A stretch of 64,000 nucleotides of DNA from Raja brachyura (Eukaryota). Made by a program: the position numbers and the translations under genes. The notes under the pieces are model-generated. The model was not told where the DNA came from. It made no database searches and saw nothing but the letters and a program-made list of their open reading frames with translations. Location: NCBI GenBank assembly GCA_963514005.1, contig OY740790.1:5270001-5334000 (forward strand), written 5' to 3'. Position 1 is the stretch's first letter; each line of letters starts with the position of its first letter. Shown here in pieces: positions 1,278 through 42,379 of the stretch.

Positions 1278-1627
1278 AGAATAGCAAGTTTAGCAATTCA
1301 ATATTAATTTCTTAGTGTCAGTTAATGTCAATTAGTGTATGTGTGCATGTTGGTCATTCACGTTATGTATGACATGCTGTTACGTGTAGTGCACCAAGAT
1401 GTGCCGTATTTCCTTCACCAAGGATGTTTATATATATAAACAGGCCTTTCCGAGTGACTGACAAAAACAGCATATGATTGCATTGAATTAGTACTTTTGA
1501 TATTGTTGACATGATTGCACTGAATTAGTACTTGGGAGAGTCACCTATTTTGCAGAATATTATCTTAATAAAAGCTTCTTTGCTGACTTTGTCTCAAACA
1601 GCGTTTGTGATCTTTTAATATCTCACA
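1278..1627 (+). mobile_element. ERV 5' LTR (5' end in gap, distinct U3)
   Basis: TATA-like run at 1431-1440, AATAAA at 1567-1572, ends TCTCACA. Positions 1535-1627 match the other LTRs. Confidence 0.8.
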
Positions 1628-1630
1628 ATT

Positions 1631-1650
1631 TGGGGGCTCAGTTCCGGTAT
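1631..1650 (+). promoter_or_regulatory. Primer-binding site, tRNA-Pro-like
   Basis: TGGGGGCTCAGTTCCGGTAT, 3 nt after the LTR, compared with canonical TGGGGGCTCGTCCGGGAT. Confidence 0.75.
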
Positions 1651-1929
1651 TTAATTACTCTGGGCACCTGACGGAGGTACACGGACGAAGAGAAGGTGCA
1701 CCCCGCTGAGTTCAGCGGTCTCAGACTCCTTGCTTACCGTCAGAAGGTTTGAGCGAGTGATGGCCGGACCAAACAGAGAACTCAGCAAAGAAGTGAAGGT
1801 GGTTGGAGATTGGTTGGAAATCGCGAAAACTGAGTAATTCTGTGCACAGATCCCGGTTAGAAACTTTGACTATTATAGTATAACCTGGGCGATTTGATAA
1901 AAGATCGGAGAGGAATTCCGATCAAGATA

Positions 1930-3961
1930 ATGGGAAATGTAAGTGAAAAACCCAAAAGGGAGGGAAAAGGCCTAAAGACAAATTCCCGCATTCTGCCTAA
2001 TAGTCCGTTGGGGCGAATGCTGAACCACTGGGGGGCAGGAAATACCCAGGGGTTGGAGAAGACAACAATGATAAGGTATTGTTATTTTGAATGGGCAAAA
2101 CACCCGATAAAAGGAGCTTAGGTCTGGTGACGAGAGGATGGGTCAGATGAGGATTGGGTACAACAGCCATTGAATGAATATGTGAAAAATAAACCCAATC
2201 CAATAATAGAAGAGATCAAGTATGCCACAGTATGGGAACAGGGATGTAATCTGTTGAAATTAAAATAGGAGTCTGGAGAGTTAAATTCCTTATCACCCTC
2301 ATGGAATTTACAGGAGAACCTAGCTCCTCCCTATGGACATCCATCACCCAACGTAGCGCCGCCAATTCGACCCCCGCCTCCACTCGTGGCGACGGGAGTG
2401 GAAGAAGTGACACCTGGATCCGTTTTGATGGTAAAAAGAAAGGTCAGGGTGAAACAAGAATTTAATGATGATGTTACTGACGGTGATGACACCGACAGTG
2501 ACCTACCGGACCCCAGGAGTGAGAAAGAAAAGGGAATAAAGAGACAGGAGGCTGTCGTGGGAGATGAATTAAAACCCCCGTCACCAGGAGAGGGTGTCAG
2601 GAGGTCAGACAGAGTAAGAAGAAGATCGGTAAAAATTAGACCTCTAAGAGAGGTACCCATGGGAGGACCCAAGGGGGAATGAGGCCAGTTCATTGGCTAT
2701 ATTTAAGAGGGAGTTAGATGTAGCCCTTCTGGCTGACGGGAGAGAAGGAGAGAAGGCAGGTACGGGATACTGAGTTGGATGATCAGCCATGATCATATTG
2801 AATGGCGGTGCAGGCTCGAAGGGCCGAATGGCCTACTCCTGCACCTAATTTCTATGTTTCTATGTTTCTATGTTAATGTCCCCTTAACTAGTACTGAAGT
2901 GAGGAATTTCAAAAAGGAAATGAGAAGCCTCCTAGGGGATCCTTTATATCTGGCAGAACAATTAGATCAGTTCCTTGGGCCAAACACTTACACATGGGAG
3001 GAGTTAATGGCCATTATGGGGAATCTCTTCACATCCGAGGAGAGGCAAATGATTAGGGTAGCAGCAATGAGAAAGTGGGAACAGGAGAACCCACCAGGGC
3101 AGCAAAATATTAGATCCAGTCTCCAGGGGATGGCCTGGATGCATACAAGCGGTAGCAGCTACCGCAATATTGGTAGAAGAGAGTGGAAAATTAACCTTTG
3201 GAGGAGCTCTGGTTGTTTCTACGCCACACACGGTGAGAACCATACTCACTCAAAAATCCAACAGATGGTTAACAGGCTCTAGACTTTTAAAGTATGAGGC
3301 CATCCTGATGGAAAAAGACGATTTGACTATAATTACAGATAAGAACCTTAACCCATCCCAATTCCTGTATCCAGCAGAGAAACAGGGTGACGAGGAAGAG
3401 GACCCAGTACACTGCTGTAGTACAATAATAGATTTACAGACAAAGAGTAGAGAAGACTAAGAAGAGCAACCTCTGGCTGAGGGCAGCCGGTGGTTTATAG
3501 ATGGATCCTCCAGGTGCACAGATGGAAAAAGACATAGTGGGTACGGTATAGTGAACGGGGAAACTATGGAGGAAATTGAAAATGGCAGACTAGCTGGTAG
3601 TTGGTCAGGTCAATCTTGTGAATTATATGCATTAATGAGAGCTTTGGAACTATTGGAGGGGAAGGAAGGAACAGTGTATACCGATTCAAAATACGCTTTT
3701 GGAGCAGTACACACCTTTGGGAAAATCTGGAAAGAGCGAGGAATGATAACCACTCGAGGGAAAGAATTAGCACATGAGCAAATAGTAGGCCAGACACTGG
3801 AAGCCTTGCAAAAACCAGAACGAATAGCCATAGCACATGTGGCAAGGCTTCAGAAGGGTAACACCCTAGAGGCCAGAGAAAATAGGGCAGTGGATGAGGT
3901 TGCAAAAAGAGCAGCCACAGAACAGATGGTAGAAATGAAGTCACTAATACCTTTAAGGGGA
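1930..3961 (+). pseudogene. Deleted ERV gag-pol (MA, CA start, RT connection, RNase H)
   Basis: MGNVSEK..SPLGRMLNHW..MIRYCYFEW; NVPLTSTEVRNFKKEM..QFLGPNTYTWEEL; deletion near 3110 to LDPVSRGWPGCIQAVAATAIL; RNase H motifs WFIDGSS..SGQSCELYAL..VYTDSKYAFG. Contains stops. Confidence 0.9.
2682..2872 (+). mobile_element. CR1/HER1 LINE 3' end inserted in gag
   Basis: CR1 3'UTR (gggccgaatggcctactcctgcacc) plus (TTTCTATG)n tail interrupting the gag frame. Confidence 0.85.
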
Positions 3962-4403
3962 TGTGAGATATAAAAAAATCACAAATGCTGTTTGAGACAA
4001 AGTCAGCAAAGAAGCTTTTATTAAGATAATATTCTGCAGAATAGGTGCCTCTCCTTTGCTGTCCCCTAGAGGCACACCAAGGGTCAGGATGTATTCTATC
4101 TTTATACATTTCATTACATTATAGCCACACCCTCTTTTCTCACCATTTTGCCTGTTTTTAATTATAACATAAAGCCCACATTCCCACGAGAAAGTCCAGG
4201 AACGCCTCGGAACATCTCCTGACGTCAAAGGCTTATACTGAAGGTTCTATCTATTTGCTACTTTCTATCTCAAAGTTCTCTCTATCTGTCGTGACTTTCT
4301 ATCCCACTAACAGTCTGGCTTTGTTGAAACCTTATTTATTTCTAAGCTATATTTTTCTATTCCTAGTTTAAATCAACCATGTCTGTTAACCCCTTTTCTC
4401 ACA
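3962..4403 (-). mobile_element. ERV LTR 1 (442 bp)
   Basis: TGTGAGA...TCTCACA 7-bp terminal inverted repeats, preceded on the minus strand by a degenerate PPT AAAAAGAAAATGATGGAT. Confidence 0.9.
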
Positions 4404-4439
4404 ATCCATCATTTTCTTTTTGCCACACAACTTTTTGAT

Positions 4440-6312
4440 TTACACTACATCCTCCTTTTCTAATGCTATCAACAGATTCTTCGCCTCCATATCCCCCTCT
4501 CGTTGGTCATAATGTGTTCTGAAAGCCATTATGGTGGCAGCGCTGTTCTTTGTCAGGGCTGTTTCTATCATTCGCTGGGCCAACCCCCGTACGCAGGGAA
4601 TGATACAGCATCCAAACAAACACAGTAACCCCACCATGACTACCACTGATGTTAGGGTTGATGTAAAGATGTGCTTCCATTTCCCAAACCAGGATTCTAG
4701 AAACCCAGTCCAGGAGGTGTCTACTCCAGAGTTCTCAGCCAATTCGATAGACAGAGAGGTGAGACCTGCTAGGGCTCTTGACACTGACCCATCCGGAGCA
4801 GTGTTGTTGGGGATGAATGTGCAACATTGTTCGCCAAACATTACATACACCCCTCCCTTCTCAGCCAGTAGCATGTCCAAGGCCATGCGATTTTGCCAGG
4901 TCATTTGGCTGGTAGCTGTCAGTTGTTCCGCTAATCCTTCAACTGCATCTCGAGTGTAATTTATAAAGCATTGTTGATTGTCGTAGAAGTAGTTGATCCA
5001 GTCCACATTTTTATTAATTGTGGGCCACCATAAGAGCATGGACTCAAAGCCTGCAGCTATCTGCTTTCTGGCTTTGAATTCATCGGGTACCCCTCTTGGC
5101 ACTCCTATCGCATCTATATAGATGTGTGTGTCAAATGATCCTTTCACCTTTCTCTTTTGTCGTCGGTTTCCTTCCTTGAGTTCTACAGCATGTTCTACTG
5201 CTATGGTAAAGGGCATCATCAGTTGTATGAGGGTACAGGTTCCCGTCCATGACCCTGGTAACCGGGGCCACAGGGTATTCTCCCCGCACCACCACCAGAC
5301 ATCAGCTCTACTGACTATCTGCTTTCTCAGCCAGGAGCTATTGAACAGTGGCCCCTGTTGAGCACCTTCCCCATGTCCTGTCCCTCTGGGTTATCTCTTG
5401 TATAGCACTCAAATCCCTCCTCCCCAAGAGGAATGGTAAATGGAGGAGGTCTAGGGTCTTCCCTTCGGCCCTTCGTATTATTGTTGCTGGTCGGAAATAG
5501 GTAATGATAACTCTGGCATATTGCATTCTTTGGTAAGGGGATTCATGAATAGCTGTAGTATACATGACATAGCCCCAGGTGTTCTATCCCAATTCAGAAA
5601 AAAATGGTACAGGGACCAGCTGAGGCCTGGCTCTGGCGCAGGCGTAACAATTGGTTTGTTGTATACTTCTAGCTGTGTACATCATCCAGGCTATCCAGGT
5701 GTTGGCTCCTGTTCCCCCTGTTGGTATTCCCTTCTCATATAACTGCCTTAATCACGTTTCTCCTGCTACTATCATTATCTTCAGATCCTTAGGCTCATTT
5801 TCCCTATTTACATTGCTGACTGCTGGTGGTGCTGGTGTTGCCCCGGGATCCCTATTCTGACTGTCATCTATCTTGACCACCTCTCCCTTCTCCTCATATC
5901 TTACCATCTCTCCATCCCACTTCACTTCTATCTCAAACTTCAGACATGCATCCTTCCTTGTTCTATCTGCACATATCCAATATCGACCACTTTCCTGCAT
6001 TTAAACACTCTGTGTGCTCACATATACGAGTCCTGGTAATTTCTCGTTTGGGTTTTGATACACTTTCCACCTATCAGTTTGATAGGTGGTCCGATGCCAC
6101 CCATATTTTGATGAAGTGAACACCGCGTGCCAATCTTTACAGGGATGGGTGCATACATACATTCTATAGCCGCACCACCATTTTCCTTTACATACATCAA
6201 ATGGGATGGTGGTGGACCTTCTATTCTGTGGTATTGTGATTTTTATGCATGTTACATTACTTACAAGCTGGGTGATTTCCCAACACACGACCCACCAACA
6301 TAAAATCTTCAT
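4440..6312 (-). pseudogene. env: ERV env, unit 1 (SU disrupted, TM frame open 4440-5219)
   Basis: Signal-like MKILCWWVVCW, NCYAC CxxC, RQKR furin site, ISD WQNRMALDMLLAEKGGV, Y-x6-CC (first Cys lost), hydrophobic anchor. Confidence 0.92.
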
Positions 6313-6646
6313 TTTTCCTGCGTGTTCCTGGTAAATATAAAAGTCAATGATTCCTCTCCTTTGCGCACAGTCCACGGGCTGATATTGTCTGGTGGGGCCT
6401 CCACAGGACCCTTGCGTGTGTCCATCTTTTCTCGTACTGCTCTCGTACTGTTCGTACTGCTGTCTCGGTGATTAGTAACACCAGGTTGCAGCTTTTCTTC
6501 TTTCCACGTTTTTTATTTATACGCAGTCTCCAGCCTTGACTGAGTGAATCGGGAAGTCCAGTGGTGGGCTCTGTGCCAGCAATCCTTTAATTTTTAGTTC
6601 TGCAAGAGATTGGGACACTGCCAGTAAATAGTTCCTTAAGAATACA

Positions 6647-7435
6647 TCACTGCCCTCGCATTGTTGGAACTCCTTCTATCTTCCCTAAGTATGGGAGCCC
6701 AAATAACATCTCATATGGTGATATCCCTATGTCTTTTCGAGGTGCCGTTCGGATTCTTAACAAGGCTATCGGGAGGCACTTAGTCCAGAGGAGTCTTGTT
6801 TCCTCTATCAACTTGGTGATTTGGGTCTTCAAGGTGCTATTCATTCTTTCCACCTTTCCTGAGGTCTGGGGATGCCATTGTGTATGCAATTTCCATTCTA
6901 TTCCCAGTGCTTCACATATCATTTTATGTGTTTTGGAGGCAAAATGGGTCCCTCTATCCGAGTCGATTGTTTCCATAATCCCATATCTAGGTATAATTTG
7001 TTCTAGTAATATCTTGGCTACCGCCTGTGAGGTGGCAGTTGTCGTGGGGAATGCCTCTACCCACCTGGTGAAATGGTCCACTATCACTAACAGGTAATTC
7101 CAGGTTTTTACCTGGGGCAGCTCGGTGAAATCTATCTGTATTCTCTGGAAGGGCCTAACTGATAATGGTTGTCCTCCTCCTGGGACTGCTCTCATGATTT
7201 TTTTGTTAATTCGCTGACCTATTACACAGCCCCCTATGACTTGTCCGGCCATGGTATACATTCCACGGCAAGAGTAGGTTCTGAGGAGGGTGTCACAGAG
7301 GGCTTGTGTTCCCCAATGGCTTTGTCCATGCAACCTCCCTAATAATTCTCTCATTATTTCTTTGTTCAATAGCTGCTTTCCATCCAGTGTCCACCATTTC
7401 CCATTTGAAGTATGCTGAGCCCCCATTTCTCGCAT
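6647..7435 (-). pseudogene. pol: ERV integrase fragment, unit 1
   Basis: QIDFT..IDSDRGTHF..KVERMN DDE core. HHCC degenerate (CVIG); stop before the C-terminal domain. Confidence 0.92.
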
Positions 7436-8521
7436 GTGTTCCTGCTCTTTCTCACTAAAGATAGGTATCTTTTCCTATTGTCCCCTTAAAGGTATTAGTG
7501 ACTTCATTTCTACCATCTGTTCTGTGGCTGCTCTTATCTTTTTAAAGCAGTCTCATCAATTTATCCCTTTGTTCCCCACTTTAATCCTTTCTGATATGCC
7601 TTCTTTCTCATTCTAAACTCAATTTCTTACTTCTCAGATAGTTTACCCTCCTTTGCAAATGTATTCACCTTTCTTTTAAAATCTTCCACTGACTCCTCCT
7701 GATTTATTACATTCACACCTGTCGTTTCCTCCTTCTGTTACCTCCTCACTGCCTCTCTCTCCTTTCCTCTCTAAACTGCTTAAGTATATCTAATTGCTTT
7801 CCTCTCCCCTTTTCCCACCTTTCCAATTTATCTGTGACATATAATTTGTAATTTTCCAAATTAACTTTACTGAAAATAAATCTATAGAAACATAAGCAAA
7901 ACCAAGCAACCTTCATTTTCCAACTTTCCCCTTTTAAGTTGCAATGCGTTGTTCGTTACCTTACAGCTGTTCGTAACTTTCCTAATTGCTTACAATTTCT
8001 TAAAGGAACACACGCACACACCCTTACAGCATGTGGCCGACAACAAACAAAAGATCACATATATGAACTTTCTCATTCATTCAAAACCGGTTTTTACACA
8101 CAAATCACATTCGTTCCATTCTTACTTCAAAGAAATTATGCAATTTTCTACACAGATTCAAGTTTCAAAATTAACATTTATATAATTCTTATCTCCCCTT
8201 TTAAGTTAAAGTAGGATGGTCTAATCCCCCATCAATCAGGTTCCTGAGCGTTGTGATTGGATAGTGATTCACATCGTGATTAGTCAGACTCACCGTCACT
8301 CAAATTCTAACCACACCCCACTAAGATCACAACCATTCAAAATCCTAGTCACTCAACATCTGACCACACCCCACTCCCATTAATCTCCAAACAAAGAAGC
8401 TCATTTTGTCTCGATCTCTCAGCAGAGAGAATGCAGCAATTTTATCTCCACAGTCAAGAAACGCAGTCCTTACACCTCCTCTGTCCTCGTAGTCACTATA
8501 TTACATTATTCTTATTGCAAT

Positions 8522-8900
8522 TCTACTTTCTGCTATTCTACAATATTTTGCATCAACTCCTCATGTACCTGACCAATCTGTATATGAGTTCCTTCTATAG
8601 ATTTTATGAAACAACTCACAACAACAATATTTCTTTCAAGTGCTTAAGATGAGCTTCTTCAATTTCCTGACATTTCTTTGAGGTTTCTGTCAATTTTTGT
8701 TCAAAATCTGTTTTTCCACATATAATTTATAGTTTTCTGTAGCTTTTTTTTAGATGTGACAGTTCCCTTTTCTATTTATTTCTGTGTTGCTCCTTCCTTT
8801 TTAACTTTTCGTACTCAAAACATTTGGCACTGTGATTTTCCTTAGATTTTTGCAATGTTTGAGTGATACTCTGAATATTCTGTACAGCATCCAAAGTGCC
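8522..8900 (-). pseudogene. Captured FCHO2-like F-BAR domain fragment inside ERV unit 1
   Basis: Manual translation across frameshifts: [90 protein letters not shown]/..[18 protein letters not shown], colinear with the recalled vertebrate FCHO2 F-BAR C-terminal half. Confidence 0.88.
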
Positions 8901-9101
8901 CAATCCGCATTATTGGTTCCTTTGGTTAATCAAAATAACAGAACTTAATCATAGTCTCTTTATCTTTACCCCCGGGGCTTCCTTCTCCCCAAGATTGCCA
9001 CATTCGCCCCAATGGACTATCAGGCAGAATGTGCGGCTCTTCACCTTTGAGCCTTTTTCTTTCCCCCCCGGACTCTTACTTTTCCCGTTCCGGTTATCCA
9101 T
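8901..9101 (-). pseudogene. Second, divergent Gag matrix-like N-terminus, unit 1
   Basis: MDNRNGKSK../PHILPDSPLGRMWQSWGEGSPGGKDKETMIKFCYFD*PKEPI, paralogous to RILPNSPLGRMLNHW..KTTMIRYCYFEWAKHPI. Confidence 0.8.
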
Positions 9102-9254
9102 TGTCTTATCGGACTATTCCCGTCCGACAGAACCCTGACCTCTCAGGGTGGTATCCACAAGGAGTTAAACTGCCTCCATTGTCTTATCGGACTATTCCCG
9201 TCCAACAGACCCCTGACCTCTCAGGGTGGTATCCACGAGGAGTTAAACTGCCTC
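9097..9254. repeat. 78-bp tandem duplication containing hairpins (leader-like)
   Basis: Unit starts tccattgtcttatcggac at 9097 and 9175. Contains ccctga-cctc-tcaggg and tcgga-N9-tccga stems. Confidence 0.85.
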
Positions 9255-9274
9255 TCTCTCCTTTAATAATTATT

Positions 9275-9561
9275 TCCCGCTTCCCATACTGCGGCATACT
9301 TGATCTCTTCTATTATTGGATTGGGTTTATTCTTCACATTTTCATTCAATGCCTGTTGTACCCAATCCTCATCTGACTCATCCTCTGGCCACCAGACCGA
9401 AGCTCCTTTATCAGGTGTTTTGGCCATTCAAAATAACAATACCTTATCATTGTTGTCTTCTCCGACCCCTGGGTATTTCCTGCCCCCCAGTGGTTCAGCA
9501 TTCGCCCCCAACGGACTATTAGGCAGAATGCTGGGATGGGTTTTTCACTTACATTTCCCAT
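9275..9561 (-). pseudogene. gag: ERV gag matrix fragment, unit 1
   Basis: MGNVSEK..GRMLNHWGAGNTQGSEKTTMIRYCYFEWPK..EDESDEDWVQQALNE, frameshifted. Confidence 0.85.
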
Positions 9562-9840
9562 TATCTTGATCGGAATTCCTCTCCGATCTTTTATCAAATC
9601 GCCCAGGTAATACTATAATAGTCAAAGTTTCTTACCGGGGTCTGTGCACAGAATTACTCGATTTTCGCGATTTCCAACCAATCTCCAACCACCTTCACTT
9701 CTTTGCTGAGTCTCTGTTTGGTCCGGCCATCACTCGCTCAAACCTTCTGACGGTAAGCAAGGAGTCTGAGACCGCTGAACTCAGCGGGGTGCACCTTCTC
9801 TTCGTCCGTGTACCCCCGTCAGCTGGCCTGGAGTAATTAA

Positions 9841-9860
9841 ATCCCGGAACCGAGCCCCCA
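9841..9860 (-). promoter_or_regulatory. PBS, tRNA-Pro-like (also at 15795-15814 and 21749-21768)
   Basis: TGGGGGCTCGGTTCCGGGAT immediately after the LTR. Confidence 0.8.
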
Positions 9861-9863
9861 AAT

Positions 9864-10352
9864 TGTGAGATATAAACAAATCTCAAACGCTGTTTGAGAC
9901 AAAGTCAGCAAAGAAGCTTTTATTAAGATAATATTCTGCAGAATAGTTGCCTCTCCTTTGCTGCCCCCTAGAGGCACCCCGAGGGTCGGGATGTATTCTA
10001 TCTTTATACATTTCATTACATTATAGCCACACCCTCTTTTCTCACCATTTTGCCTCTATTTAATTATAACATAAAGCCCACATTCCCACGAGAAAGTCCA
10101 GGAACGCCTCGGAACATCTCTTGACGTCAAAGGCTTATACTGAAGTTTCTATCTATTTGCTACTTTTTATCTCAAAGTTCTCTCTGTGCTCTGTTCTATC
10201 TGTCGTTACTTTCTATCTCAAAGTTCTCTCTATCTGTCGTGACTTTCTATCCCACTAACAGTCTGGCTTTGTTGAAACCTTATTTCTTTCTAAGCTACAT
10301 TTTTTCTATTCCTAGTTTAAATCAACCATGTCTGTTAACCCCTTTTCTCACA
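9864..10352 (-). mobile_element. ERV LTR 2 (489 bp), shared between units 1 and 2
   Basis: TGTGAGA..TCTCACA, with a PBS on one side and PPT/env on the other. Confidence 0.9.
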
Positions 10353-13300
10353 ATCCATCATTTTTCTTTTTGCCACGCAACTTTTTGATTTACACTACAT
10401 CCTCCTTTTCTAATGCTATCAACAGATTCTTCGCATCCATATCCCCCTCTCGTTGGTCATAATGTGTTCTGAAAGCCATTATGGTGGCAGCGCTGTTCTT
10501 TGTCAGGGCTGTTTCTATCATTCGCTGGGCCAACCCCCGTACGCAGGGAATGATACAGCATCCAAACAAACACAGTAACCCCACCATGACTACCACTGAT
10601 GTTAGGGTTGATGTAAAGATGTGCTTCCATTTCCCAAACCAGGATTCTAGAAACCCAGTCCAGGAGGTGTCTACTCCAGAGTTCTCAGCCAATTCAAGGC
10701 CAAGACAGAGAGGTGAGACCTGCTAGGGCTCTTAACACTGACCCATCCGGAGCAGTGTTGTTGGGGATGAATGTGCAACATTGTTCGCCAAACATTACAC
10801 ACACCCCTCCCTTCTCAGCCAGTAGCATGTCCAAGGCCATGCGATTTTGCCAGGTCATTTGGCTGGTAGCTGTCAGTTGTTCCGCTAATCCTTCAACTGC
10901 ATCTCGAGTGTAATTTATAAAGCGTTGTTGATTGTCGTATAAGTAGTTGATCCAGTCCACATTTTTATTAATTGTGGGCCACCAGAAGAGCATGGACTCA
11001 AAGCCTGCAGCTATCTGCTTTCTGGCTTTGAATTCATCGGGTACCCCTCTTGGCACTCCTATCGCATCTATATAGATGTGTGTGTCAAATGATCCTTTCA
11101 CCTTTCTCTTTTGTCGTCGGTTTCCTTCCTTGAGTTCTACAGCATGTTCTACTGCTATGGTAAAGGGCATCATCAGTTGTATGAGGGTACAGGTTCCCGT
11201 CCATGACCCTGGTAACCGGGGCCACAGGGTATTCTCCCCGCACCATCACCAGACATCAGCTCCACTGACTATCTGCTTTCTCAGCCAGGAGCTATTGAAC
11301 AGTGGCCCCTGTTGAGCACCTTCCCCATGTCCTGTCCCTCTGGGTTATCTCTTGTATAGCACTCAAATCCCTCCTCCCCAAGAGGAATGGTAAATGGAGG
11401 AGGTCTAGGGTCTTCCCTTCGGCCCTTCGTATTATTGTTGCTGGTCGGAAATAGGTAATGATAACTCTGGCATATTGCATTCTTTGGTAAGGGGATTCAT
11501 GAATAGCTGTAGTATACATGACATAGCCCCAGGTGTTCTATCCCAATTCAGAAAAAAATGGTACAGGGACCAGCTGAGGCCTGGCTCTGGCGCAGGCGTA
11601 ACAATTGGTTCGTTGTATACTTCTAGCTGTGTACATCATCCAGGCTATCCAGGTGTTGGCTCCTGTTCCCCCTGTTGGTATTCCCTTCTCATATAACTGC
11701 CTTAATCACGTTTCTCCTGCTACTATCATTATCTTCAGATCCTTAGGCTCATTTTCCCTATTTACATTGCTAACTGCTGGTGGTGCTGGTGTTGCCCCGG
11801 GATCCCTATTCTGACTGTCATCTATCTTGACCACCTCTCCCTTCTCCTCATATCTTACCATCTCTCCATCCCACTTCACTTCTATCTCAAACTTCAGACA
11901 TGCATCCTTCCTTGTTCTATCTGCACATATCCAATATCTACCACTTTCCTGCATTTAAACACTCCGTGTGCTCACATATACGAGTCCTGGTAATTTCTCG
12001 TTTGGGTTTTGATACACTTTCCACCTATCAGTTTGATAGGTGGTCCAATGCCACCCATATTTTGATGAAGTGAACACCGCGTGCCAATCTTTACAGGGAT
12101 GGGTGCATACATACATTCTATAGCCGCACCACCATTTTCCTTTACATACATCAAATGGGATGGTGGTGGACCTTCTATTCTGTGGTATTGTGATTTTTAT
12201 GCATGTTACATTACTTACAAGTTGGGTGATTTCCCAACACACGACCCACCAACATAAAATCTTCATTTTTCCTGCGTGTTCCTGGTAAATATAAAAGTCA
12301 ATGATTCCTCTCCTTTGCGCACAGTCCACGGGCTGATATTGTCTGGTGGGGCCTCCACAGGACCCTTGCGTGTGTCCATCTTTTCTCGTACTGCTCTCGT
12401 ACTGTTCGTACTGCTGTCTCGGTGATTAGTAACACCAGGTTGCAGCTTTTCTTCTTTCCACATTTTTTATTTATACGCAGTCTCCAGCCTTGACTGAGTG
12501 AATCGGGAAGTCCAGTGGTGGGCTCTGTGCCAGCAATCCTTTAATTTTTAGTTCTGCAAGAGATTGGGACACTGCCAGTAAATAGTTCCTTAAGAATACA
12601 TCACTGCCCTCGCATTGTTGGAACTCCTTCTATCTTCCCTAAGTATGGGAGCCCAAATAACATCTCATATGGTGATATCCCTATGTCTTTTCGAGGTGCC
12701 GTTCGGATTCTTAACAAGGCTATCGGGAGGCACTTAGTCCAGGGGTGTCTTGTTTCCTCTATCAACTTGGTGATTTGGGTCTTCAAGGTGCTATTCATTC
12801 TTTCCACCTTTCCTGAGGTCTGGGGATGCCATTGTGTATGCAATTTCCATTCTATTCCCAGTGCTTCACATATCATTTTATGTGTTTTGGAGGCAAAATG
12901 GGTCCCTCTATCTGAGTCGATTGTTTCCATAATCCCATATCTAGGTATAATTTGTTCTAGTAATATCTTGGCTACCGCCTGTGAGGTGGCAGTTGTCGTG
13001 GGGAATGCCTCTACCCACCTGGTGAAATGGTCCACTATCACTAACAGGTACTTCCAGGTTTTTACCTGGGGCAGCTCGGTGAAATCTATCTGTATTCTCT
13101 GGAAGGGCCTAACTGATAATGGTTGTCCTCCTCCTGGGACTGCTCTCATGATTTTTTTGTTAATTCGCTGACCTATTACACAGCCCCCTATGACTTGTCC
13201 GGCCATGGTATACATTCCACGGCAAGAGTAGGTTCTGAGGAGGGTGTCACAGAGGGCTTGTGTTCCCCAATGGCTTTGTCCATGCAACCTCCCTAATAAT

Positions 13301-15817
13301 TCTCTCATTATTTCTTTGTTCAATAGCTGCTTTCCATCCAGTGTCCACCATTTCCCATTTGAAGTATGCTGAGCCCCCATTTCTCGCATGTGTTCCTGCT
13401 CTTTCTCACTAAAGATAGGTATCTTTTCCTATTGTCCCCTTAAAGGTATTAGTGACTTCATTTCTACCATCTGTTCTGTGGCTGCTCTTATCTTTTTAAA
13501 GCAGTCTCATCAATTTATCCCTTTGTTCCCCACTTTAATCCTTTCTGATATGCCTTCTTTCTCATTCTAAACTCAATTTCTTACTTCTCAGATAGTTTAC
13601 CCTCCTTTGCAAATGTATTCACCTTTCTTTTAAAATCTTCCACTGACTCCTCCTGATTTATTACATTCACACCTGTCGTTTCCTCCTTCTGTTACCTCCT
13701 CACTGCCTCTCTCTCCTTTCCTCTCTAAACTGCTTAAGTATATCTAATTGCTTTCCTCTCCCCTTTTCCCACCTTTCCAATTTATCTGTGACATATAATT
13801 TGTAATTTTCCAAATTAACTTTACTGAAAATAAATCTATAGAAACATAAGCAAAACCAAGCAACCTTCATTTTCCAACTTTCCCCTTTTAAGTTGCAATG
13901 CGTTGTTCGTTACCTTACAGCTGTTCGTAACTTTCCTAATTGCTTACAATTTCTTAAAGGAACACACGCACACACCCTTACAGCATGTGGCCGACAACAA
14001 ACAAAAGATCACATATATGAACTTTCTCATTCATTCAAAACCGGTTTTTACACACAAATCACATTCGTTCCATTCTTACTTCAAAGAAATTATGCAATTT
14101 TCTACACAGATTCAAGTTTCAAAATTAACATTTATATAATTCTTATCTCCCCTTTTAAGTTAAAGTAGGATGGTCTAATCCCCCATCAATCAGGTTCCTG
14201 AGCGTTGTGATTGGATAGTGATTCACATCGTGATTAGTCAGACTCACCGTCACTCAAATTCTAACCACACCCCACTAAGATCACAACCATTCAAAATCCT
14301 AGTCACTCAACATCTGACCACACCCCACTCCCATTAATCTCCAAACAAAGAAGCTCATTTTGTCTCGATCTCTCAGCAGAGAGAATGCAGCAATTTTATC
14401 TCCACAGTCAAGAAACGCAGTCCTTACACCTCCTCTGTCCTCGTAGTCACTATATTACATTATTCTTATTGCAATTCTACTTTCTGCTATTCTACAATAT
14501 TTTGCATCAACTCCTCATGTACCTGACCAATCTGTATATGAGTTCCTTCTATAGATTTTATGAAACAACTCACAACAACAATATTTCTTTCAAGTGCTTA
14601 AGATGAGCTTCTTCAATTTCCTGACATTTCTTTGAGGTTTCTGTCAATTTTTGTTCAAAATCTGTTTTTCCACATATAATTTATAGTTTTCTGTAGCTTT
14701 TTTTTAGATGTGACAGTTCCCTTTTCTATTTATTTCTGTGTTGCTCCTTCCTTTTTAACTTTTCGTACTCAAAACATTTGGCACTGTGATTTTCCTTAGA
14801 TTTTTGCAATGTTTGAGTGATACTCTGAATATTCTGTACAGCATCCAAAGTGCCCAATCCGCATTATTGGTTCCTTTGGTTAATCAAAATAACAGAACTT
14901 AATCATAGTCTCTTTATCTTTACCCCCGGGGCTTCCTTCTCCCCAAGATTGCCACATTCGCCCCAATGGACTATCAGGCAGAATGTGCGGCTCTTCACCT
15001 TTGAGCCTTTTTCTTTCCCCCCCGGACTCTTACTTTTCCCGTTCCGGTTATCCATTGTCTTATCGGACTATTCCCGTCCGACAGAACCCTGACCTCTCAG
15101 GGTGGTATCCACAAGGAGTTAAACTGCCTCCATTGTCTTATCGGACTATTCCCGTCCAACAGACCCCTGACCTCTCAGGGTGGTATCCACGAGGAGTTAA
15201 ACTGCCTCTCTCTCCTTTAATAATTATTTCCCGCTTCCCATACTGCGGCATACTTGATCTCTTCTATTATTGGATTGGGTTTATTCTTCACATTTTCATT
15301 CAATGCCTGTTGTACCCAATCCTCATCTGACTCATCCTCTGGCCACCAGACCGAAGCTCCTTTATCAGGTGTTTTGGCCATTCAAAATAACAATACCTTA
15401 TCATTGTTGTCTTCTCCGACCCCTGGGTATTTCCTGCCCCCCAGTGGTTCAGCATTCGCCCCCAACGGACTATTAGGCAGAATGCTGGGATGGGTTTTTC
15501 ACTTACATTTCCCATTATCTTGATCGGAATTCCTCTCCGATCTTTTATCAAATCGCCCAGGTAATACTATAATAGTCAAAGTTTCTTACCGGGGTCTGTG
15601 CACAGAATTACTCGATTTTCGCGATTTCCAACCAATCTCCAACCACCTTCACTTCTTTGCTGAGTCTCTGTTTGGTCCGGCCATCACTCGCTCAAACCTT
15701 CTGACGGTAAGCAAGGAGTCTGAGACCGCTGAACTCAGCGGGGTGCACCTTCTCTTCGTCCGTGTACCCCCGTCAGCTGGCCTGGAGTAATTAAATCCCG
15801 GAACCGAGCCCCCAAAT
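10353..15817 (-). mobile_element. ERV internal region, unit 2 (env 10390-12266, IN 12601-13389, MA fragments)
   Basis: Copy of unit 1 at offset ~5954; the ORF track repeats. env TM is frameshifted near 10695. Confidence 0.92.
14476..14854 (-). pseudogene. FCHO2-like F-BAR fragment, unit 2
   Basis: Same sequence as 8522-8900 at +5954. Confidence 0.88.
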
Positions 15818-16306
15818 TGTGAGATATAAACAAATCTCAAACGCTGTTTGAGACAAAGTCAGCAAAGAAGCTTTTATTAAGATAATATTCTGCTGAATAG
15901 GTGCCTCTCCTTTGCTGCCCCCTAGAGGCACCCCGAGGGTCGGGATGTATTCTATCTTTATACATTTCATTACATTATAGCCACACCCTCTTTTCTCACC
16001 ATTTTGCCTCTATTTAATTATAACATAAAGCCCACATTCCCACGAGAAAGTCCAGGAACGCCTCGGAACATCTCTTGACGTCAAAGGCTTATACTGAAGT
16101 TTCTATCTATTTGCTACTTTTTATCTCAAAGTTCTCTCTGTGCTCTGTTCTATCTGTCGTTACTTTCTATCTCAAAGTTCTCTCTATCTGTCGTGACTTT
16201 CTATCCCACTAACAGTCTGGCTTTGTTGAAACCTTATTTCTTTCTAAGCTACATTTTTTCTATTCCTAGTTTAAATCAACCATGTCTGTTAACCCCTTTT
16301 CTCACA
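15818..16306 (-). mobile_element. ERV LTR 3, shared between units 2 and 3
   Basis: Copy of LTR 2 at +5954 with a few substitutions. Confidence 0.9.
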
Positions 16307-19300
16307 ATCCATCATTTTTCTTTTTGCCACGCAACTTTTTGATTTACACTACATCCTCCTTTTCTAATGCTATCAACAGATTCTTCGCATCCATATCCCC
16401 CTCTCGTTGGTCATAATGTGTTCTGAAAGCCATTATGGTGGCAGCGCTGTTCTTTGTCAGGGCTGTTTCTATCATTCGCTGGGCCAACCCCCGTACGCAG
16501 GGAATGATACAGCATCCAAACAAACACAGTAACCCCACCATGACTACCACTGATGTTAGGGTTGATGTAAAGATGTGCTTCCATTTCCCAAACCAGGATT
16601 CTAGAAACCCAGTCCAGGAGGTGTCTACTCCAGAGTTCTCAGCCAATTCAAGGCCAAGACAGAGAGGTGAGACCTGCTAGGGCTCTTAACACTGACCCAT
16701 CCGGAGCAGTGTTGTTGGGGATGAATGTGCAACATTGTTCGCCAAACATTACACACACCCCTCCCTTCTCAGCCAGTAGCATGTCCAAGGCCATGCGATT
16801 TTGCCAGGTCATTTGGCTGGTAGCTGTCAGTTGTTCCGCTAATCCTTCAACTGCATCTCGAGTGTAATTTATAAAGCGTTGTTGATTGTCGTATAAGTAG
16901 TTGATCCAGTCCACATTTTTATTAATTGTGGGCCACCAGAAGAGCATGGACTCAAAGCCTGCAGCTATCTGCTTTCTGGCTTTGAATTCATCGGGTACCC
17001 CTCTTGGCACTCCTATCGCATCTATATAGATGTGTGTGTCAAATGATCCTTTCACCTTTCTCTTTTGTCGTCGGTTTCCTTCCTTGAGTTCTACAGCATG
17101 TTCTACTGCTATGGTAAAGGGCATCATCAGTTGTATGAGGGTACAGGTTCCCGTCCATGACCCTGGTAACCGGGGCCACAGGGTATTCTCCCCGCACCAT
17201 CACCAGACATCAGCTCCACTGACTATCTGCTTTCTCAGCCAGGAGCTATTGAACAGTGGCCCCTGTTGAGCACCTTCCCCATGTCCTGTCCCTCTGGGTT
17301 ATCTCTTGTATAGCACTCAAATCCCTCCTCCCCAAGAGGAATGGTAAATGGAGGAGGTCTAGGGTCTTCCCTTCGGCCCTTCGTATTATTGTTGCTGGTC
17401 GGAAATAGGTAATGATAACTCTGGCATATTGCATTCTTTGGTAAGGGGATTCATGAATAGCTGTAGTATACATGACATAGCCCCAGGTGTTCTATCCCAA
17501 TTCAGAAAAAAATGGTACAGGGACCAGCTGAGGCCTGGCTCTGGCGCAGGCGTAACAATTGGTTCGTTGTATACTTCTAGCTGTGTACATCATCCAGGCT
17601 ATCCAGGTGTTGGCTCCTGTTCCCCCTGTTGGTATTCCCTTCTCATATAACTGCCTTAATCACGTTTCTCCTGCTACTATCATTATCTTCAGATCCTTAG
17701 GCTCATTTTCCCTATTTACATTGCTAACTGCTGGTGGTGCTGGTGTTGCCCCGGGATCCCTATTCTGACTGTCATCTATCTTGACCACCTCTCCCTTCTC
17801 CTCATATCTTACCATCTCTCCATCCCACTTCACTTCTATCTCAAACTTCAGACATGCATCCTTCCTTGTTCTATCTGCACATATCCAATATCTACCACTT
17901 TCCTGCATTTAAACACTCCGTGTGCTCACATATACGAGTCCTGGTAATTTCTCGTTTGGGTTTTGATACACTTTCCACCTATCAGTTTGATAGGTGGTCC
18001 AATGCCACCCATATTTTGATGAAGTGAACACCGCGTGCCAATCTTTACAGGGATGGGTGCATACATACATTCTATAGCCGCACCACCATTTTCCTTTACA
18101 TACATCAAATGGGATGGTGGTGGACCTTCTATTCTGTGGTATTGTGATTTTTATGCATGTTACATTACTTACAAGTTGGGTGATTTCCCAACACACGACC
18201 CACCAACATAAAATCTTCATTTTTCCTGCGTGTTCCTGGTAAATATAAAAGTCAATGATTCCTCTCCTTTGCGCACAGTCCACGGGCTGATATTGTCTGG
18301 TGGGGCCTCCACAGGACCCTTGCGTGTGTCCATCTTTTCTCGTACTGCTCTCGTACTGTTCGTACTGCTGTCTCGGTGATTAGTAACACCAGGTTGCAGC
18401 TTTTCTTCTTTCCACATTTTTTATTTATACGCAGTCTCCAGCCTTGACTGAGTGAATCGGGAAGTCCAGTGGTGGGCTCTGTGCCAGCAATCCTTTAATT
18501 TTTAGTTCTGCAAGAGATTGGGACACTGCCAGTAAATAGTTCCTTAAGAATACATCACTGCCCTCGCATTGTTGGAACTCCTTCTATCTTCCCTAAGTAT
18601 GGGAGCCCAAATAACATCTCATATGGTGATATCCCTATGTCTTTTCGAGGTGCCGTTCGGATTCTTAACAAGGCTATCGGGAGGCACTTAGTCCAGGGGT
18701 GTCTTGTTTCCTCTATCAACTTGGTGATTTGGGTCTTCAAGGTGCTATTCATTCTTTCCACCTTTCCTGAGGTCTGGGGATGCCATTGTGTATGCAATTT
18801 CCATTCTATTCCCAGTGCTTCACATATCATTTTATGTGTTTTGGAGGCAAAATGGGTCCCTCTATCTGAGTCGATTGTTTCCATAATCCCATATCTAGGT
18901 ATAATTTGTTCTAGTAATATCTTGGCTACCGCCTGTGAGGTGGCAGTTGTCGTGGGGAATGCCTCTACCCACCTGGTGAAATGGTCCACTATCACTAACA
19001 GGTACTTCCAGGTTTTTACCTGGGGCAGCTCGGTGAAATCTATCTGTATTCTCTGGAAGGGCCTAACTGATAATGGTTGTCCTCCTCCTGGGACTGCTCT
19101 CATGATTTTTTTGTTAATTCGCTGACCTATTACACAGCCCCCTATGACTTGTCCGGCCATGGTATACATTCCACGGCAAGAGTAGGTTCTGAGGAGGGTG
19201 TCACAGAGGGCTTGTGTTCCCCAATGGCTTTGTCCATGCAACCTCCCTAATAATTCTCTCATTATTTCTTTGTTCAATAGCTGCTTTCCATCCAGTGTCC

Positions 19301-21771
19301 ACCATTTCCCATTTGAAGTATGCTGAGCCCTCATTTCTCGCATGTGTTCCTGCTCTTTCTCACTAAAGATAGGTATCTTTTCCTATTGTCCCCTTAAAGG
19401 TATTAGTGACTTCATTTCTACCATCTGTTCTGTGGCTGCTCTTATCTTTTTAAAGCAGTCTCATCAATTTATCCCTTTGTTCCCCACTTTAATCCTTTCT
19501 GATATGCCTTCTTTCTCATTCTAAACTCAATTTCTTACTTCTCAGATAGTTTACCCTCCTTTGCAAATGTATTCACCTTTCTTTTAAAATCTTCCACTGA
19601 CTCCTCCTGATTTATTACATTCACACCTGTCGTTTCCTCCTTCTGTTACCTCCTCACTGCCTCTCTCTCCTTTCCTCTCTAAACTGCTTAAGTATATCTA
19701 ATTGCTTTCCTCTCCCCTTTTCCCACCTTTCCAATTTATCTGTGACATATAATTTGTAATTTTCCAAATTAACTTTACTGAAAATAAATCTATAGAAACA
19801 TAAGCAAAACCAAGCAACCTTCATTTTCCAACTTTCCCCTTTTAAGTTGCAATGCGTTGTTCGTTACCTTACAGCTGTTCGTAACTTTCCTAATTGCTTA
19901 CAATTTCTTAAAGGAACACACGCACACACCCTTACAGCATGTGGCCGACAACAAACAAAAGATCACATATATGAACTTTCTCATTCATTCAAAACCGGTT
20001 TTTACACACAAATCACATTCGTTCCATTCTTACTTCAAAGAAATTATGCAATTTTCTACACAGATTCAAGTTTCAAAATTAACATTTATATAATTCTTAT
20101 CTCCCCTTTTAAGTTAAAGTAGGATGGTCTAATCCCCCATCAATCAGGTTCCTGAGCGTTGTGATTGGATAGTGATTCACATCGTGATTAGTCAGACTCA
20201 CCGTCACTCAAATTCTAACCACACCCCACTAAGATCACAACCATTCAAAATCCTAGTCACTCAACATCTGACCACACCCCACTCCCATTAATCTCCAAAC
20301 AAAGAAGCTCATTTTGTCTCGATCTCTCAGCAGAGAGAATGCAGCAATTTTATCTCCACAGTCAAGAAACGCAGTCCTTACACCTCCTCTGTCCTCGTAG
20401 TCACTATATTACATTATTCTTATTGCAATTCTACTTTCTGCTATTCTACAATATTTTGCATCAACTCCTCATGTACCTGACCAATCTGTATATGAGTTCC
20501 TTCTATAGATTTTATGAAACAACTCACAACAACAATATTTCTTTCAAGTGCTTAAGATGAGCTTCTTCAATTTCCTGACATTTCTTTGAGGTTTCTGTCA
20601 ATTTTTGTTCAAAATCTGTTTTTCCACATATAATTTATAGTTTTCTGTAGCTTTTTTTTAGATGTGACAGTTCCCTTTTCTATTTATTTCTGTGTTGCTC
20701 CTTCCTTTTTAACTTTTCGTACTCAAAACATTTGGCACTGTGATTTTCCTTAGATTTTTGCAATGTTTGAGTGATACTCTGAATATTCTGTACAGCATCC
20801 AAAGTGCCCAATCCGCATTATTGGTTCCTTTGGTTAATCAAAATAACAGAACTTAATCATAGTCTCTTTATCTTTACCCCCGGGGCTTCCTTCTCCCCAA
20901 GATTGCCACATTCGCCCCAATGGACTATCAGGCAGAATGTGCGGCTCTTCACCTTTGAGCCTTTTTCTTTCCCCCCCGGACTCTTACTTTTCCCGTTCCG
21001 GTTATCCATTGTCTTATCGGACTATTCCCGTCCGACAGAACCCTGACCTCTCAGGGTGGTATCCACAAGGAGTTAAACTGCCTCCATTGTCTTATCGGAC
21101 TATTCCCGTCCAACAGACCCCTGACCTCTCAGGGTGGTATCCACGAGGAGTTAAACTGCCTCTCTCTCCTTTAATAATTATTTCCCGCTTCCCATACTGC
21201 GGCATACTTGATCTCTTCTATTATTGGATTGGGTTTATTCTTCACATTTTCATTCAATGCCTGTTGTACCCAATCCTCATCTGACTCATCCTCTGGCCAC
21301 CAGACCGAAGCTCCTTTATCGGGTGTTTTGGCCATTCAAAATAACAATACCTTATCATTGTTGTCTTCTCCGACCCCTGGGTATTTCCTGCCCCCCAGTG
21401 GTTCAGCATTCGCCCCCAACGGACTATTAGGCAGAATGCTGGGATGGGTTTTTCACTTACATTTCCCATTATCTTGATCGGAATTCCTCTCCGATCTTTT
21501 ATCAAATCGCCCAGGTAATACTATAATAGTCAAAGTTTCTTACCGGGGTCTGTGCACAGAATTACTCGATTTTCGCGATTTCCAACCAATCTCCAACCAC
21601 CTTCACTTCTTTGCTGAGTCTCTGTTTGGTCCGGCCATCACTCGCTCAAACCTTCTGACGGTAAGCAAGGAGTCTGAGACCGCTGAACTCAGCGGGGTGC
21701 ACCTTCTCTTCGTCCGTGTACCCCCGTCAGCTGGCCTGGAGTAATTAAATCCCGGAACCGAGCCCCCAAAT
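16307..21771 (-). mobile_element. ERV internal region, unit 3 (env 16344-18220, IN 18555-19343)
   Basis: Near-identical to unit 2 at +5954. Confidence 0.92.
20430..20808 (-). pseudogene. FCHO2-like F-BAR fragment, unit 3
   Basis: Same sequence as 8522-8900 at +11908. Confidence 0.88.
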
Positions 21772-22347
21772 TGTGAGATATAAAAAAATCACAAATGCTG
21801 TTTGAGACAAAGTCAGCAAAGAAGCTTTTATTAAGATAATATTCTGCAGAATAGTTGCCTCTCCTTTGCTGTCCCCTAGACATGGTTGATTTAAACTAGG
21901 AATAGAAAAAATGTAGCTTAGAAAGAAATAAGGTTTCAACAAAGCCAGACTGTTAGTGGGATAGAAAGTCACGACAGATAGAGAGAACTTTGAGATAGAA
22001 AGTAACGACAGATAGAACAGAGCACAGAGAGAACTTTGAGATAAAAAGTAGCAAATAGATAGAACCTTCAGTATAAGCCTTTGACGTCAGGAGATGTTCC
22101 GAGGTGTTCCTGGACTTTCTCGTGGGAATGTGGGCTTTATGTTATAATTAAAAAGAGGCAAAATGGTGAGAAAAGAGGGTGTGGCTATAATGTAATGAAA
22201 TGTATAAAGATAGAATACATCCCGACCCTCGGTGTGCCTCTAGGGGGCAGCAAAGGAGAGGCACCTATTCTGCAGAATATTATCTTAATAAAAGCTTCTT
22301 TGCTGACTTTGTCTCAAACAGCGTTTGTGATTTTTTTATATCTCACA
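21772..22347. mobile_element. Fold-back LTR: minus-strand LTR 3' end (21772-21880) joined to a near-complete plus-strand LTR (21878-22347)
   Basis: Junction gtcccct-AGA-catggttg; ~109-bp inverted arms. Confidence 0.85.
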
Positions 22348-23346
22348 ATTACAATAGACAATAGACAATAGACATTAGGTACAGGAGCAGGCCATTCGGC
22401 CCTTCGAGCCAGCACCGCTATTCAATGTGATCATGGTTGATCATCCCCAATCACTACCCCATTCCTGCCTTCTCCCCTTTTCCCCTGACTCCGCTATTTT
22501 TAAGAGCCCGATCTAGCTCTCTCTTGAAAGCATCCGGAGAACCTGCCTCCACCGCCCTCTGAGGCAGACAATTCCACAGACCAATTCAAGACAGTGATAA
22601 CTGGAGAGCACTTTTCAAAAATCTACATAAAGACATCCTAATAAATAATATAAATTTAAATTATTCTCATATCAAATAAAAACTCCAAACATTAGAAACA
22701 ATAATTAAAGATTATCAAAATCCTCTTGATTTCCAAATTACTTTGGAAGAATTGACCATAAAAATAAAATCTCTCCATTCAAAGAAAGCCAGCAATGAAA
22801 TGAAAAGCTCAAATACAGCATTCCGGTGATGTACAGCATAGGCTGTTCAACATCTCACTACGTTCAGGTTATTTCCCTGATATTTTGTGTCAAGGGTTTA
22901 TTTCGCCCATTTATAAGAGTGGAAACAAATTAGACCCAAATAATTATTGTGGGAGCTGTGTCAATAGCTGCCTAGGGAAGTTGTTCTGTAGTATCATAAA
23001 TAACAGAATGCAGGATTTCCTTAACATATACAACATTCTCAGTAAAAATCAAATTGGCTTCCTCCCAAAACACCGTACCACTGACTAAATCTATGCGCTC
23101 CACACTCTCATTGAATAACATATACTCCAAGCAAAAAAATGGAAAAATATTTGCCTGGTTTATTGACTTTGAGAAAGCATTTGGCACGAAGGGCTCTATT
23201 ACAAACTTCTCTGTTGTGGTATAGGAGGAAAGGTATATGACCTTATCAAATCAATGTATGTGAATAATAAATATGACATTAAAATTGTGGAAAATGCACT
23301 GATCTGTTCGCCCAGAGAAGAGGTCCGGCAAGGCTGCAATCCGAGC

Positions 23347-40624: not shown

Positions 40625-41127
40625 CTGGTTGCATCATGGCCTGATTCGGCAACTTGAACGTCCAGGAGCAAAAATGACGACAAAAAGTTGTAACCACTGC
40701 CCAGTTCATCGCCGGCTTTGACCTCCGCACCGTCAAAGGGATCTATCATAGTCGCTGCCTCAAAAAGGCAGCCAAAATCATCAAGGACCCACACCATCCT
40801 GGCCACACACTCATCTCACCATTGCCATCAGGAAGAAGTTACAGGAGCCTGAAAACTGTAACGTTCAGGTACAGGAACAGCTTCTTCCCTGCAGCCATCA
40901 GGCTATTAAACACAATGAATAAGCTCTGAGCTCTGAACTGCAAAATACTATATTATTGTTTGTTATTTGCACTATTTGTTATTTATTGAACTTTTTCTTT
41001 TTTTCTCTTCCCCCATTATGCACTATGTTTACATATTCACATATTCTGTTGTGCTGCAGCAAGTAAGAATTTCATTGTCCCATCCGGGACATATGACTAT
41101 AAAACACTCTTGACTCTTCTTGACTCT
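40625..41127 (+). mobile_element. L2-clade LINE 3' fragment
   Basis: IIKDPHHPGHTLISPLPSGRSYRS; (GACTCTT)n tail. Confidence 0.8.
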
Positions 41128-41259
41128 AGTCCAGGCCTCTTGGTCATCACTCACTCACTCACACACTGCAACACCTGTCCTTCAGTGCTAAACTTGCCTG
41201 GCCCCTATTTTGTGACGGGGTAAAAGATGTGATCATTAGAGTAAATCCCAGCACGCTAC

Positions 41260-41577
41260 CTTGAAAGCTTTTCACTTCCCGGCTGATACTGGTGTTCGAG
41301 GGGGGATGAGACACTGTACAGCCAAAGACTGAGCCTTTTTTCCAATCCTCTGAACTCACAGTCAGGAAGTGGCTGGCACTGAAAGTCCCCCCCTGCTCCA
41401 GAGCAGTCGGTGAAGCGCTGGTGGTGGAGGAGATCGGGGCTCCGTCTTTCTCCCACGTGACGTTTATGAGGTCCGGGTAGAAACCAGAGAGCACACACTC
41501 GAGGGTGGCTGTGTGGCTACGCTTGGTCTCTTCATGAGCTGGAGGCAGCAGTCTGACCTTGGGGCTTTTTGTTTCAA
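41260..41577 (-). CDS. Extra CH4-like exon, pair C
   Basis: ttccag acceptor, 318 nt open, G|GTAGCG donor. Confidence 0.85.
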
Positions 41578-41619
41578 CTGGAACAGAGGAGCAAAGTAAA
41601 TGTGAGACCCTCTTCCTCA

Positions 41620-41923
41620 AGGGCCTGTCCCAATTACGCGATTTTTTTCGTCGAATGTTTTCAGCATGTTCAATATCCAGCGGCCACCAGAACTAGGTAC
41701 GACTCTTTGGGCAACTACTCATGACCATACAGGCTTCACCCCACAACATGTCGCCAGGGTGTCGCCTGTATGTTCGTGAGTAGTCTCCTCAGTCGCACAG
41801 AGTCGGAGTGTCTTTCTGGAATTTTCCAGAACTTTCAACATGTTGAATATTTTCGCTGACCTGCAAGGACCTATGACGGGTGCCGGCAGTCGCCAAAAAA
41901 GTTGTGTAAGTGGGACAGGCCCC
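41620..41923. mobile_element. PIF/Harbinger-like MITE (also at 43616-43912, 45632-45972, 54918-55258)
   Basis: TIR AGGGCCTGTCCCACTTACG...CGTAAGTGGGACAGGCCC; 3-bp TCA (or TAA/TTA) flanks. Confidence 0.75.
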
Positions 41924-41969
41924 TCATGGCAACTAATGTTGGCCATATCTTTGCCGATCTCTCGCCCAC

Positions 41970-42271
41970 CTTTGGACTTTCTGTCCGTGCTGACACTGGT
42001 GAGGATGATGGAGATCGTTGGGCAGAGCACACAACCTCCACCCCGCTGGTCCATTCCTCCACACTGCTCCGGAGTTTACTGCTCACTCTGTCTTGGGTCC
42101 TTTCTCCTCTCGGTTGGTGGGTCACAGCCCCTGTAGTTCTCTCCCTTCCGCTCACTTGCCAGTAGATTTGGACCTGGCTCAGATCAGCACCCATTACCAC
42201 GCACACCACAGTAGCGGTCTTGTTGATCCAAATCTCTTCAGTGGAGGGGTTTTGGATAAAGACAGACAATT
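41970..42271 (-). pseudogene. Extra CH3-like exon, pair C, with 1-nt deletion near the donor
   Basis: 302 nt. Reads AGTCCAAAG|GT versus AGTGCCAAAG|GT in pairs A and B, which changes the exit phase. Confidence 0.75.
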
Positions 42272-42379
42272 CTGCAGATGAGAAATAGGAAGCTTACAAA
42301 CCGGACAAGGTCTGGTGTTGTCGTCACCAATCAACGACTTGCATTCATTTTCCAGACTCACTTTATTGACGTGTGCACA

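Follow-up and report, generated by a model that had tools for sequence, protein, structure and literature searches.

The oncogenes v-fes and v-fps are gag-onc fusions that contain an F-BAR domain and encode in-frame proteins, and the Gag-Fes/Fps oncoproteins are the analogue of the MA-F-BAR fusion protein that a first-pass annotation had proposed for the locus described here. Pseudogenes derived from circular RNAs (circRNAs) have been described in mouse and human only, with a mechanism that was called mysterious, and 33 mouse circRFWD2 copies were found beside MMERVK10C-int (Dong et al. 2016, PMC4897178). That LTR elements undergo template switching at sites of microsimilarity is established, and the cases of LTR-mediated retroposition covered in the consulted part of the same source include HERV-K/FAM8A1 and multi-gene chimeras (Tan et al. 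2016, PMC5131818). One review, in the section consulted, ties circRNA-derived pseudogenes to possible LTR-mediated retroposition (PMC5408686), and the consulted portion of a 2025 review contains nothing further on the mechanism (PMC12747553). HIV-1 virions were reported to package circRNAs in the excerpted text of a 2026 preprint (bioRxiv 10.64898/2026.01.21.700838). The human circFCHO2 of the excerpted literature comprises exons 19-20 and is a different circle from the one discussed below (PMC10838848). The open-access literature searched yielded no account of this element, nor of an FCHO2 circle captured by an endogenous retrovirus (ERV).

The window analysed here is a stretch of 64,000 nucleotides from Raja brachyura (contig OY740790.1). 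Its minus strand contains three head-to-tail ERV units with a period of 5954 nt, in which neighbouring units share LTRs, and the feature under study lies within the first of them (Table 1). Each unit is composed of an LTR, a leader, two gag starts (MA1 and MA2), an FCHO2 piece, an AT-rich stretch, an integrase fragment and a broken env; no capsid, protease or RT was seen in these units in the ORF list or the profile search. The elements resemble class I (gamma/epsilon-like) ERVs in a Gag N-terminus related to Gag_p30-bearing proteins, in a TLV_coat env and in the MLV-type integrase C-terminal domain of locus L092, but differ from them in that the window units are non-autonomous recombinants with two gag starts in series, in which no capsid, protease or RT was seen. 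The family is large in this genome (589 DNA candidates, 40 of which were scored). The anatomy, the reading frames, the exon order and the recombination described below were observed directly in these copies.

Table 1. Features of the window, with positions in window coordinates.
Feature	Position	Strand	Remarks
5' LTR (TG...CA)	9864..10352	-	common to the next tandem unit; 99.6% to the next LTR; origin in the second (A-type) ERV
Primer-binding site	9842..9860	-	sequence adjoining the LTR end; presumably of tRNA-Pro type
A-type leader with pre-ATG hairpin	9562..9841	-	249/261 nt to window 1535-2700; fold
MA1, broken gag start of A-type ERV	9255..9561	-	216/228 nt to A-type fragment
78-nt unit, two copies, stem-loop rich	9097..9254	-	spans the A/B' crossover; the FCHO2-bearing lineage contributes its leader end as the 3' ~42 nt
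ATG and MA2, broken gag start of the FCHO2-capturing lineage	8900..9101	-	frameshift, stop, 37-nt deletion near 8910
FCHO2 remnant, first half of the captured lap	8534..8899	-	intron-free, out of frame, broken; exon 5 nt 20-153 (8899-8767), exon 6, exon 7, exon 8 nt 1-34
AT-rich stretch after the cut in exon 8 (B' and window-type copies)	7480..8533	-	present in related copies
Integrase fragment	6647..7474	-	PF00665, E 4.6e-20
Broken env	4440..6471	-	PF00429, E 5.5e-14
A-type ERV fragment without FCHO2	1535..2720	+	LTR end, leader, gag start with MG, PPY, proline-rich stretch; relative of the MA1 donor
FCHO2 remnant, MA2 and 78-nt units in the second tandem copy	14488..15208	-	+5954
FCHO2 remnant, MA2 and 78-nt units in the third tandem copy	20442..21162	-	+11908

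The three near-identical units occupy positions 3962-22350, where the 5' LTR of the third is truncated and abuts an inverted LTR at about 21878-22350; units 2 and 3 show 2 differences in 5400 nt. This array may reflect a recent tandem duplication or an assembly effect, and similar tandem pairs or triples occur on contigs C283 and C5. Family copies at a spacing of about 45 kb on C29 (21.63-21.83 Mb) and on C940 suggest a larger segmental array. Immediately outside the last LTR, 55 nt (3907-3961) are identical, in inverted orientation, to 7481-7535, and the A-type gag fragment is likewise inverted relative to the array. A repeat of about 2 kb is present in three tandem copies at 40974-46320, with another copy near 53600-54900. 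The AT-rich stretch gave no Pfam match in six frames; it takes the place of the second half of the lap and of other inserts in B' and W copies (see below), and is longer in some.

The F-BAR identity given by the first-pass annotation is correct. The fragment is FCHO2 from residue 120 onward (PDB 2v0o, E 1.8e-20; 65% to skate FCHO2), and it was recognised by PDB and homologue searches, as Pfam gave no match with the broken frames of the window. A genome search with the N-terminal part of skate FCHO2 retrieved the intron-split host gene (contig C3) and dozens of intron-free pieces. In the older ERV copies the host exons stand in the order 5b-6-7-8|2-3-4-5a, and this rotated order, with exon 5 nt 20-153 first and exons 2-4 plus the first bases of exon 5 last, was found in all 19 ERV loci mapped (L085-L102 and L104), some of which lack one insert end from later breaks. 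Locus L103 (C1432:55001-65000), which has intron-split exons of an FCHO paralogue (54-87% to FCHO2) and lies outside the ERV family, was left out of this map. The join between exon 8 and exon 2 is kept in 13 loci, chosen by protein search and not by the junction; it is flush at the host donor and acceptor in 12 and has a 1-nt indel in one, while the six other mapped loci share a deletion that removes it. A genome-wide search with the exact junction pattern gave 21 matches, against 0 for the reversed control.

Exons 2-8 comprise 763 nt, and the insert, running from exon 5 nt 20 round to nt 23, comprises 763 nt plus an overlap of 4 nt, so that the same 4 host bases stand at both ends. A near-complete lap is retained in L086 and L087, and gag-like codons resume downstream of it. 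Each of the host exons 2-8 has one match in 200 kb of this genome, and the matches of the ERV loci to the whole FCHO2 protein are confined to residues 10-267, with exon 1 and exon 9 sequence absent. With a reversed flush junction, only exons 2-8 without introns and no genomic tandem duplication in 200 kb, the insert is a probable circRNA-derived pseudogene, a class to which the window's own copy, having lost the exon 8|exon 2 junction, belongs by descent. It also has the marks of an LTR retrocopy, since LTR pairs flank it (93.3% alike in L085, 95.1% in L087 and 91.7% in L088), about three codons were replaced and 4 host bases stand at both junctions, which is a short match.

The same older copies contain two further host inserts, so that the older ERV is a three-gene chimera; for the second insert the structure atlas returned only generic coiled-coil matches. 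One comprises ten exons, in normal order, of a gene on C8 (70.139-70.165 Mb) that we take to be of RRBP1/KTN1 type; they lie downstream of its PF05104 exon. The other comprises three exons, also in normal order, from the 3' end of CCHCR1 (PF07111; C1351). Both inserts keep gene order in the same B copies, which indicates that rotation is not a general artefact of the element. In L087 they occupy 4534-5358 and 5487-5823 as two colinear pieces of spliced host mRNA, as they do in L085, L086, L092, L095 and L097; the roughly 130 nt between them (L087:5359-5486) match neither of the fetched regions.

An empty gag site was recovered as one 1280-nt contig (depth 30.7) from run X19 of a related organism, organism B; the run is of a kind not on record, and its intron ends look genomic. 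This contig connects the two gag flanks through 6 other letters and skips 753 nt. All nine Gag relatives in which the motif was matched (of 56) have three residues at this place without counterpart in the filled site, and together the contig and these relatives indicate that a few viral bases were replaced at capture. Two pattern searches for an empty site in the present genome found none (0 matches in the first, and 22 in the second, of which the 20 inspected all carry FCHO2).

These results point to one reading, to which we assign a probability of about 0.8: the F-BAR sequence is the surviving half of a permuted FCHO2 insert, made as one lap from a co-packaged circRNA through RT template switching, and MA2 is the gag start of the same ERV, retained after recombination. 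The circRNA template, the switching and the one-lap/RNase H step are the parts that we infer. An FCHO2 exon 2-8 circRNA would have been co-packaged and served as RT template; during minus-strand synthesis RT would have left the viral RNA for the circle where exon 5 offered a short similarity, and copied round it through the back-splice junction. After one lap it would have met its own RNase H-cut start and jumped back to the virus, a switch that would have replaced about three gag codons, and the resulting element would have spread in trans as non-coding cargo.

Compared with the mouse circRFWD2 pseudogenes, the FCHO2 copies are alike in a non-colinear junction at back-splice sites, in being intron-free, in their many copies and in their association with ERVs. 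They differ from that case, as given in the main text of PMC4897178, in that a whole lap lies within gag with both virus-host junctions mapped, and in the 4-nt overlap of the ends, the empty site of a relative and the traceable later deletions and recombination. The likeness to LTR-mediated retroposition, in the consulted part of PMC5131818, lies in a piece of host RNA that replaces an internal part, in short shared bases at the junctions, in several parental genes and in onward spread as a non-autonomous element; the difference is that the template here would be a circle, and neither 'circRNA' nor 'circular' occurs in the main text of that paper.

Several points count against circle capture: back-spliced RNA was not seen in the RNA sets analysed, no empty site turned up in the present genome and the similarity at the junctions is short (4 bases at each end). 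In two RNA sets of organism A, an oligo-dT run of which 5% was read and a contig set guessed to be RNA, no exon 8|exon 2 RNA was listed, which is a weak test, and only linear FCHO2 mRNA was seen; the oligo-dT run gave 16 reads over intact exon 5, 7 over exon 1|2 and 8 over exon 8|9. Runs on record as RNA were absent from the listed holders of the element, and four of the 24 listed runs were analysed. Both virus-host junctions and the back-splice join are present in run X16, which is possibly from the source species and therefore not independent. The unseen circRNA would suit a linear RNA with repeated exons, produced by trans-splicing or by a since lost tandem duplication of exons 2-8 and copied by ordinary template switching. 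Such a template would yield an identical exon 8|exon 2 join, and non-colinear junctions can arise in other ways (Dong et al., PMC4897178). We nevertheless consider it unlikely, because each host exon occurs once in the 200 kb examined, because exon 1 and exon 9 sequence is absent from the copies compared with the whole FCHO2 protein, and because the points of entry and exit lie within 4 nt of each other, as they must on a circle but need not on a linear repeat. Equally improbable, in our view, is that reverse transcription turned the circRNA into a DNA circle before it entered proviral DNA by one recombination at microhomology. A single crossover of this kind would also give exactly one lap and a short duplication, but about three gag codons were replaced rather than none, as happens in template switches (Tan et al., PMC5131818, consulted part), and the two linear mRNA pieces in the same element show that an RNA-level route was in use.

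The first-pass annotation had read the locus as an accessory gene in which an ATG opens a matrix-like peptide that runs into the F-BAR sequence, currently 1 nt out of frame. The matrix-like nature of the peptide stands, as MA2 and MA1 share 72% identity over 113 nt, but it is not opened by the ATG at 9101-9099, which sits 77 nt ahead of the PDS codons and out of phase with them. It shares its phase with the FCHO2 codons (207 nt), and traverses MA2 in a foreign frame with two stops. The frame offset is not one local lesion, since a 37-nt deletion precedes the junction in the window lineage, and in copies without this deletion the junction is likewise out of frame. In-frame reading across the family also fails: 82 of 84 distinct copies, the oldest included, have one and the same gag-to-FCHO2 phase, which is out of frame; 82 of the 84 have a stop 4-5 codons upstream when read in the FCHO2 phase; and in none of the 84 does an open stretch with an ATG lead into the FCHO2 frame. 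Where the MA body could be located (61 copies), chance indels put MA in phase in 11, and all 11 meet a stop before the junction. No ORF of at least 70 aa crosses the junction among the 30 closest copies.

An ancestral MA-F-BAR fusion protein that was later broken is thus exceedingly improbable, even though MA2 adjoins the F-BAR sequence, one B copy keeps 146 open FCHO2 codons and the window-type ATG shares the FCHO2 phase in 27 of 34 copies. That ATG came into phase only after the 37-nt deletion, which older copies lack, and from it MA is read off-frame; moreover, the insert starts in the middle of the domain, at residue 120. None of the 84 copies has the open in-frame gag-host ORF from a start codon that defines a gag-onc fusion gene. 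The copies themselves refute the fusion-gene reading for this genome, and the proposed membrane-shaping fusion protein is to be dropped. The likeness to v-fes and v-fps is confined to a retroviral gag start beside a captured sequence of the F-BAR family, the difference being that the FCHO2 insert here was out of frame from the start and non-coding.

The older homologue of MA2 in L092 has 56 relatives, many of which begin with MG. Gag_p30 (PF02093) was found downstream in 4 of the 12 relatives scanned, in 2 of them above the cut-off, and through these relatives MA2 can be placed at the N-terminus of a Gag_p30-bearing polyprotein, as is a class I matrix. Neither Pfam, PDB nor the structure atlas gave a direct matrix match for MA2 or the L092 piece, so the matrix assignment relies on position and relatives. 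For the L092 matrix piece, a homologue search returned no match and the structure atlas no useful lead.

Copies with a whole or near-whole lap were labelled B, those with the lap cut at exon 8 nt 34 were labelled B' and window-type copies W. In B copies the gag MA leads into FCHO2 exon 5, entered at nt 20, and on through the whole of exon 8; exon 2 to exon 5 nt 23 come next, and gag resumes after them. The LTR pairs of B copies are 91.7-95.1% alike (three loci), and their median distance from the host exons is 4.3% (10 copies). B' copies have a single MA and stop at exon 8 nt 34, beyond which comes the AT-rich stretch. W copies have an extra LTR, leader and MA1, about 95% like the FCHO2-free ERV fragment at window 1535-2720, while the last 42 nt of their 78-nt unit and MA2 are 90-96% like B' (39/42; 102-106/110). 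The annotation had offered a recombinant of two related ERVs as its alternative, and this part was borne out: the leader and MA1 match an FCHO2-free ERV, and MA2 matches the FCHO2-bearing lineage. The comparison supports W copies as recombinants of an A-type ERV with the FCHO2-bearing lineage, with the crossover placed inside the 78-nt unit. The window lineage lost half of the lap and then recombined with the second ERV. A 98/96 branch of the tree separates W from the host, B and most B' copies. Support values are rough and the bootstrap did not converge (correlation 0.944); two B'-labelled rows are placed within W.

That MA1 and MA2 are adjacent and 72% alike might instead suggest internal duplication and divergence of MA1 in one element. 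We regard this as very improbable: each half of the W copies is 90-96% like its own, separately existing ERV lineage and 62-75% like the other (leader, MA1 and MA2 body), and single-MA B' copies exist. MA2 as a duplicated MA1 was accordingly rejected on the comparison of each half with separate ERV lineages.

The tandem 78-bp duplication noted in the first pass is present in all three ERV units, with copies 96% alike at 9097-9254. Of the stem-loops proposed before the two ATGs, the one at the 3' end of the 78-nt unit holds (z -3.0; 2 of 200 shuffles equally good), and the whole units fold with z -2.2 and -2.6. The pre-gag 41-mer folds by itself (z -2.7), but its hairpin is lost within a 71-nt context (z -1.4). 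Both one-unit and two-unit copies exist in the family; they do not cluster in the tree (a value as low arose in 127 of 500 shuffles), so the two states cannot be ordered in time. The duplication would most likely have come from RT slippage in the hairpin-rich leader, and might possibly give a packaging gain.

The host FCHO2 (L072, exons 5 and 8) has three amino-acid changes, at residues 130, 241 and 245, relative to six other batoids. The residues common to these batoids are kept in 9 of 11 B copies, the other two differing or being cut at one site, which indicates that the capture predates the changes or occurred in another lineage. We think it rather probable, with less assurance than for the insert itself, that a skate retrovirus packaged a host circRNA, that RT copied exactly one lap and was forced off by its own RNase H cut, and that the resulting fossil, with its back-splice junction, switch points and empty site, gives the missing mechanism of circRNA pseudogenes and records a cartilaginous-fish FCHO2 exon 2-8 circRNA from before the three host changes. 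The FCHO2 case retains every landmark needed to infer the route from circRNA to pseudogene, and it predicts that ERV-borne circRNA copies are one lap long and opened at a short similarity to the virus. It also shows that ERVs can preserve RNA isoforms that are extinct or hard to detect, and multiply them into hundreds of copies.
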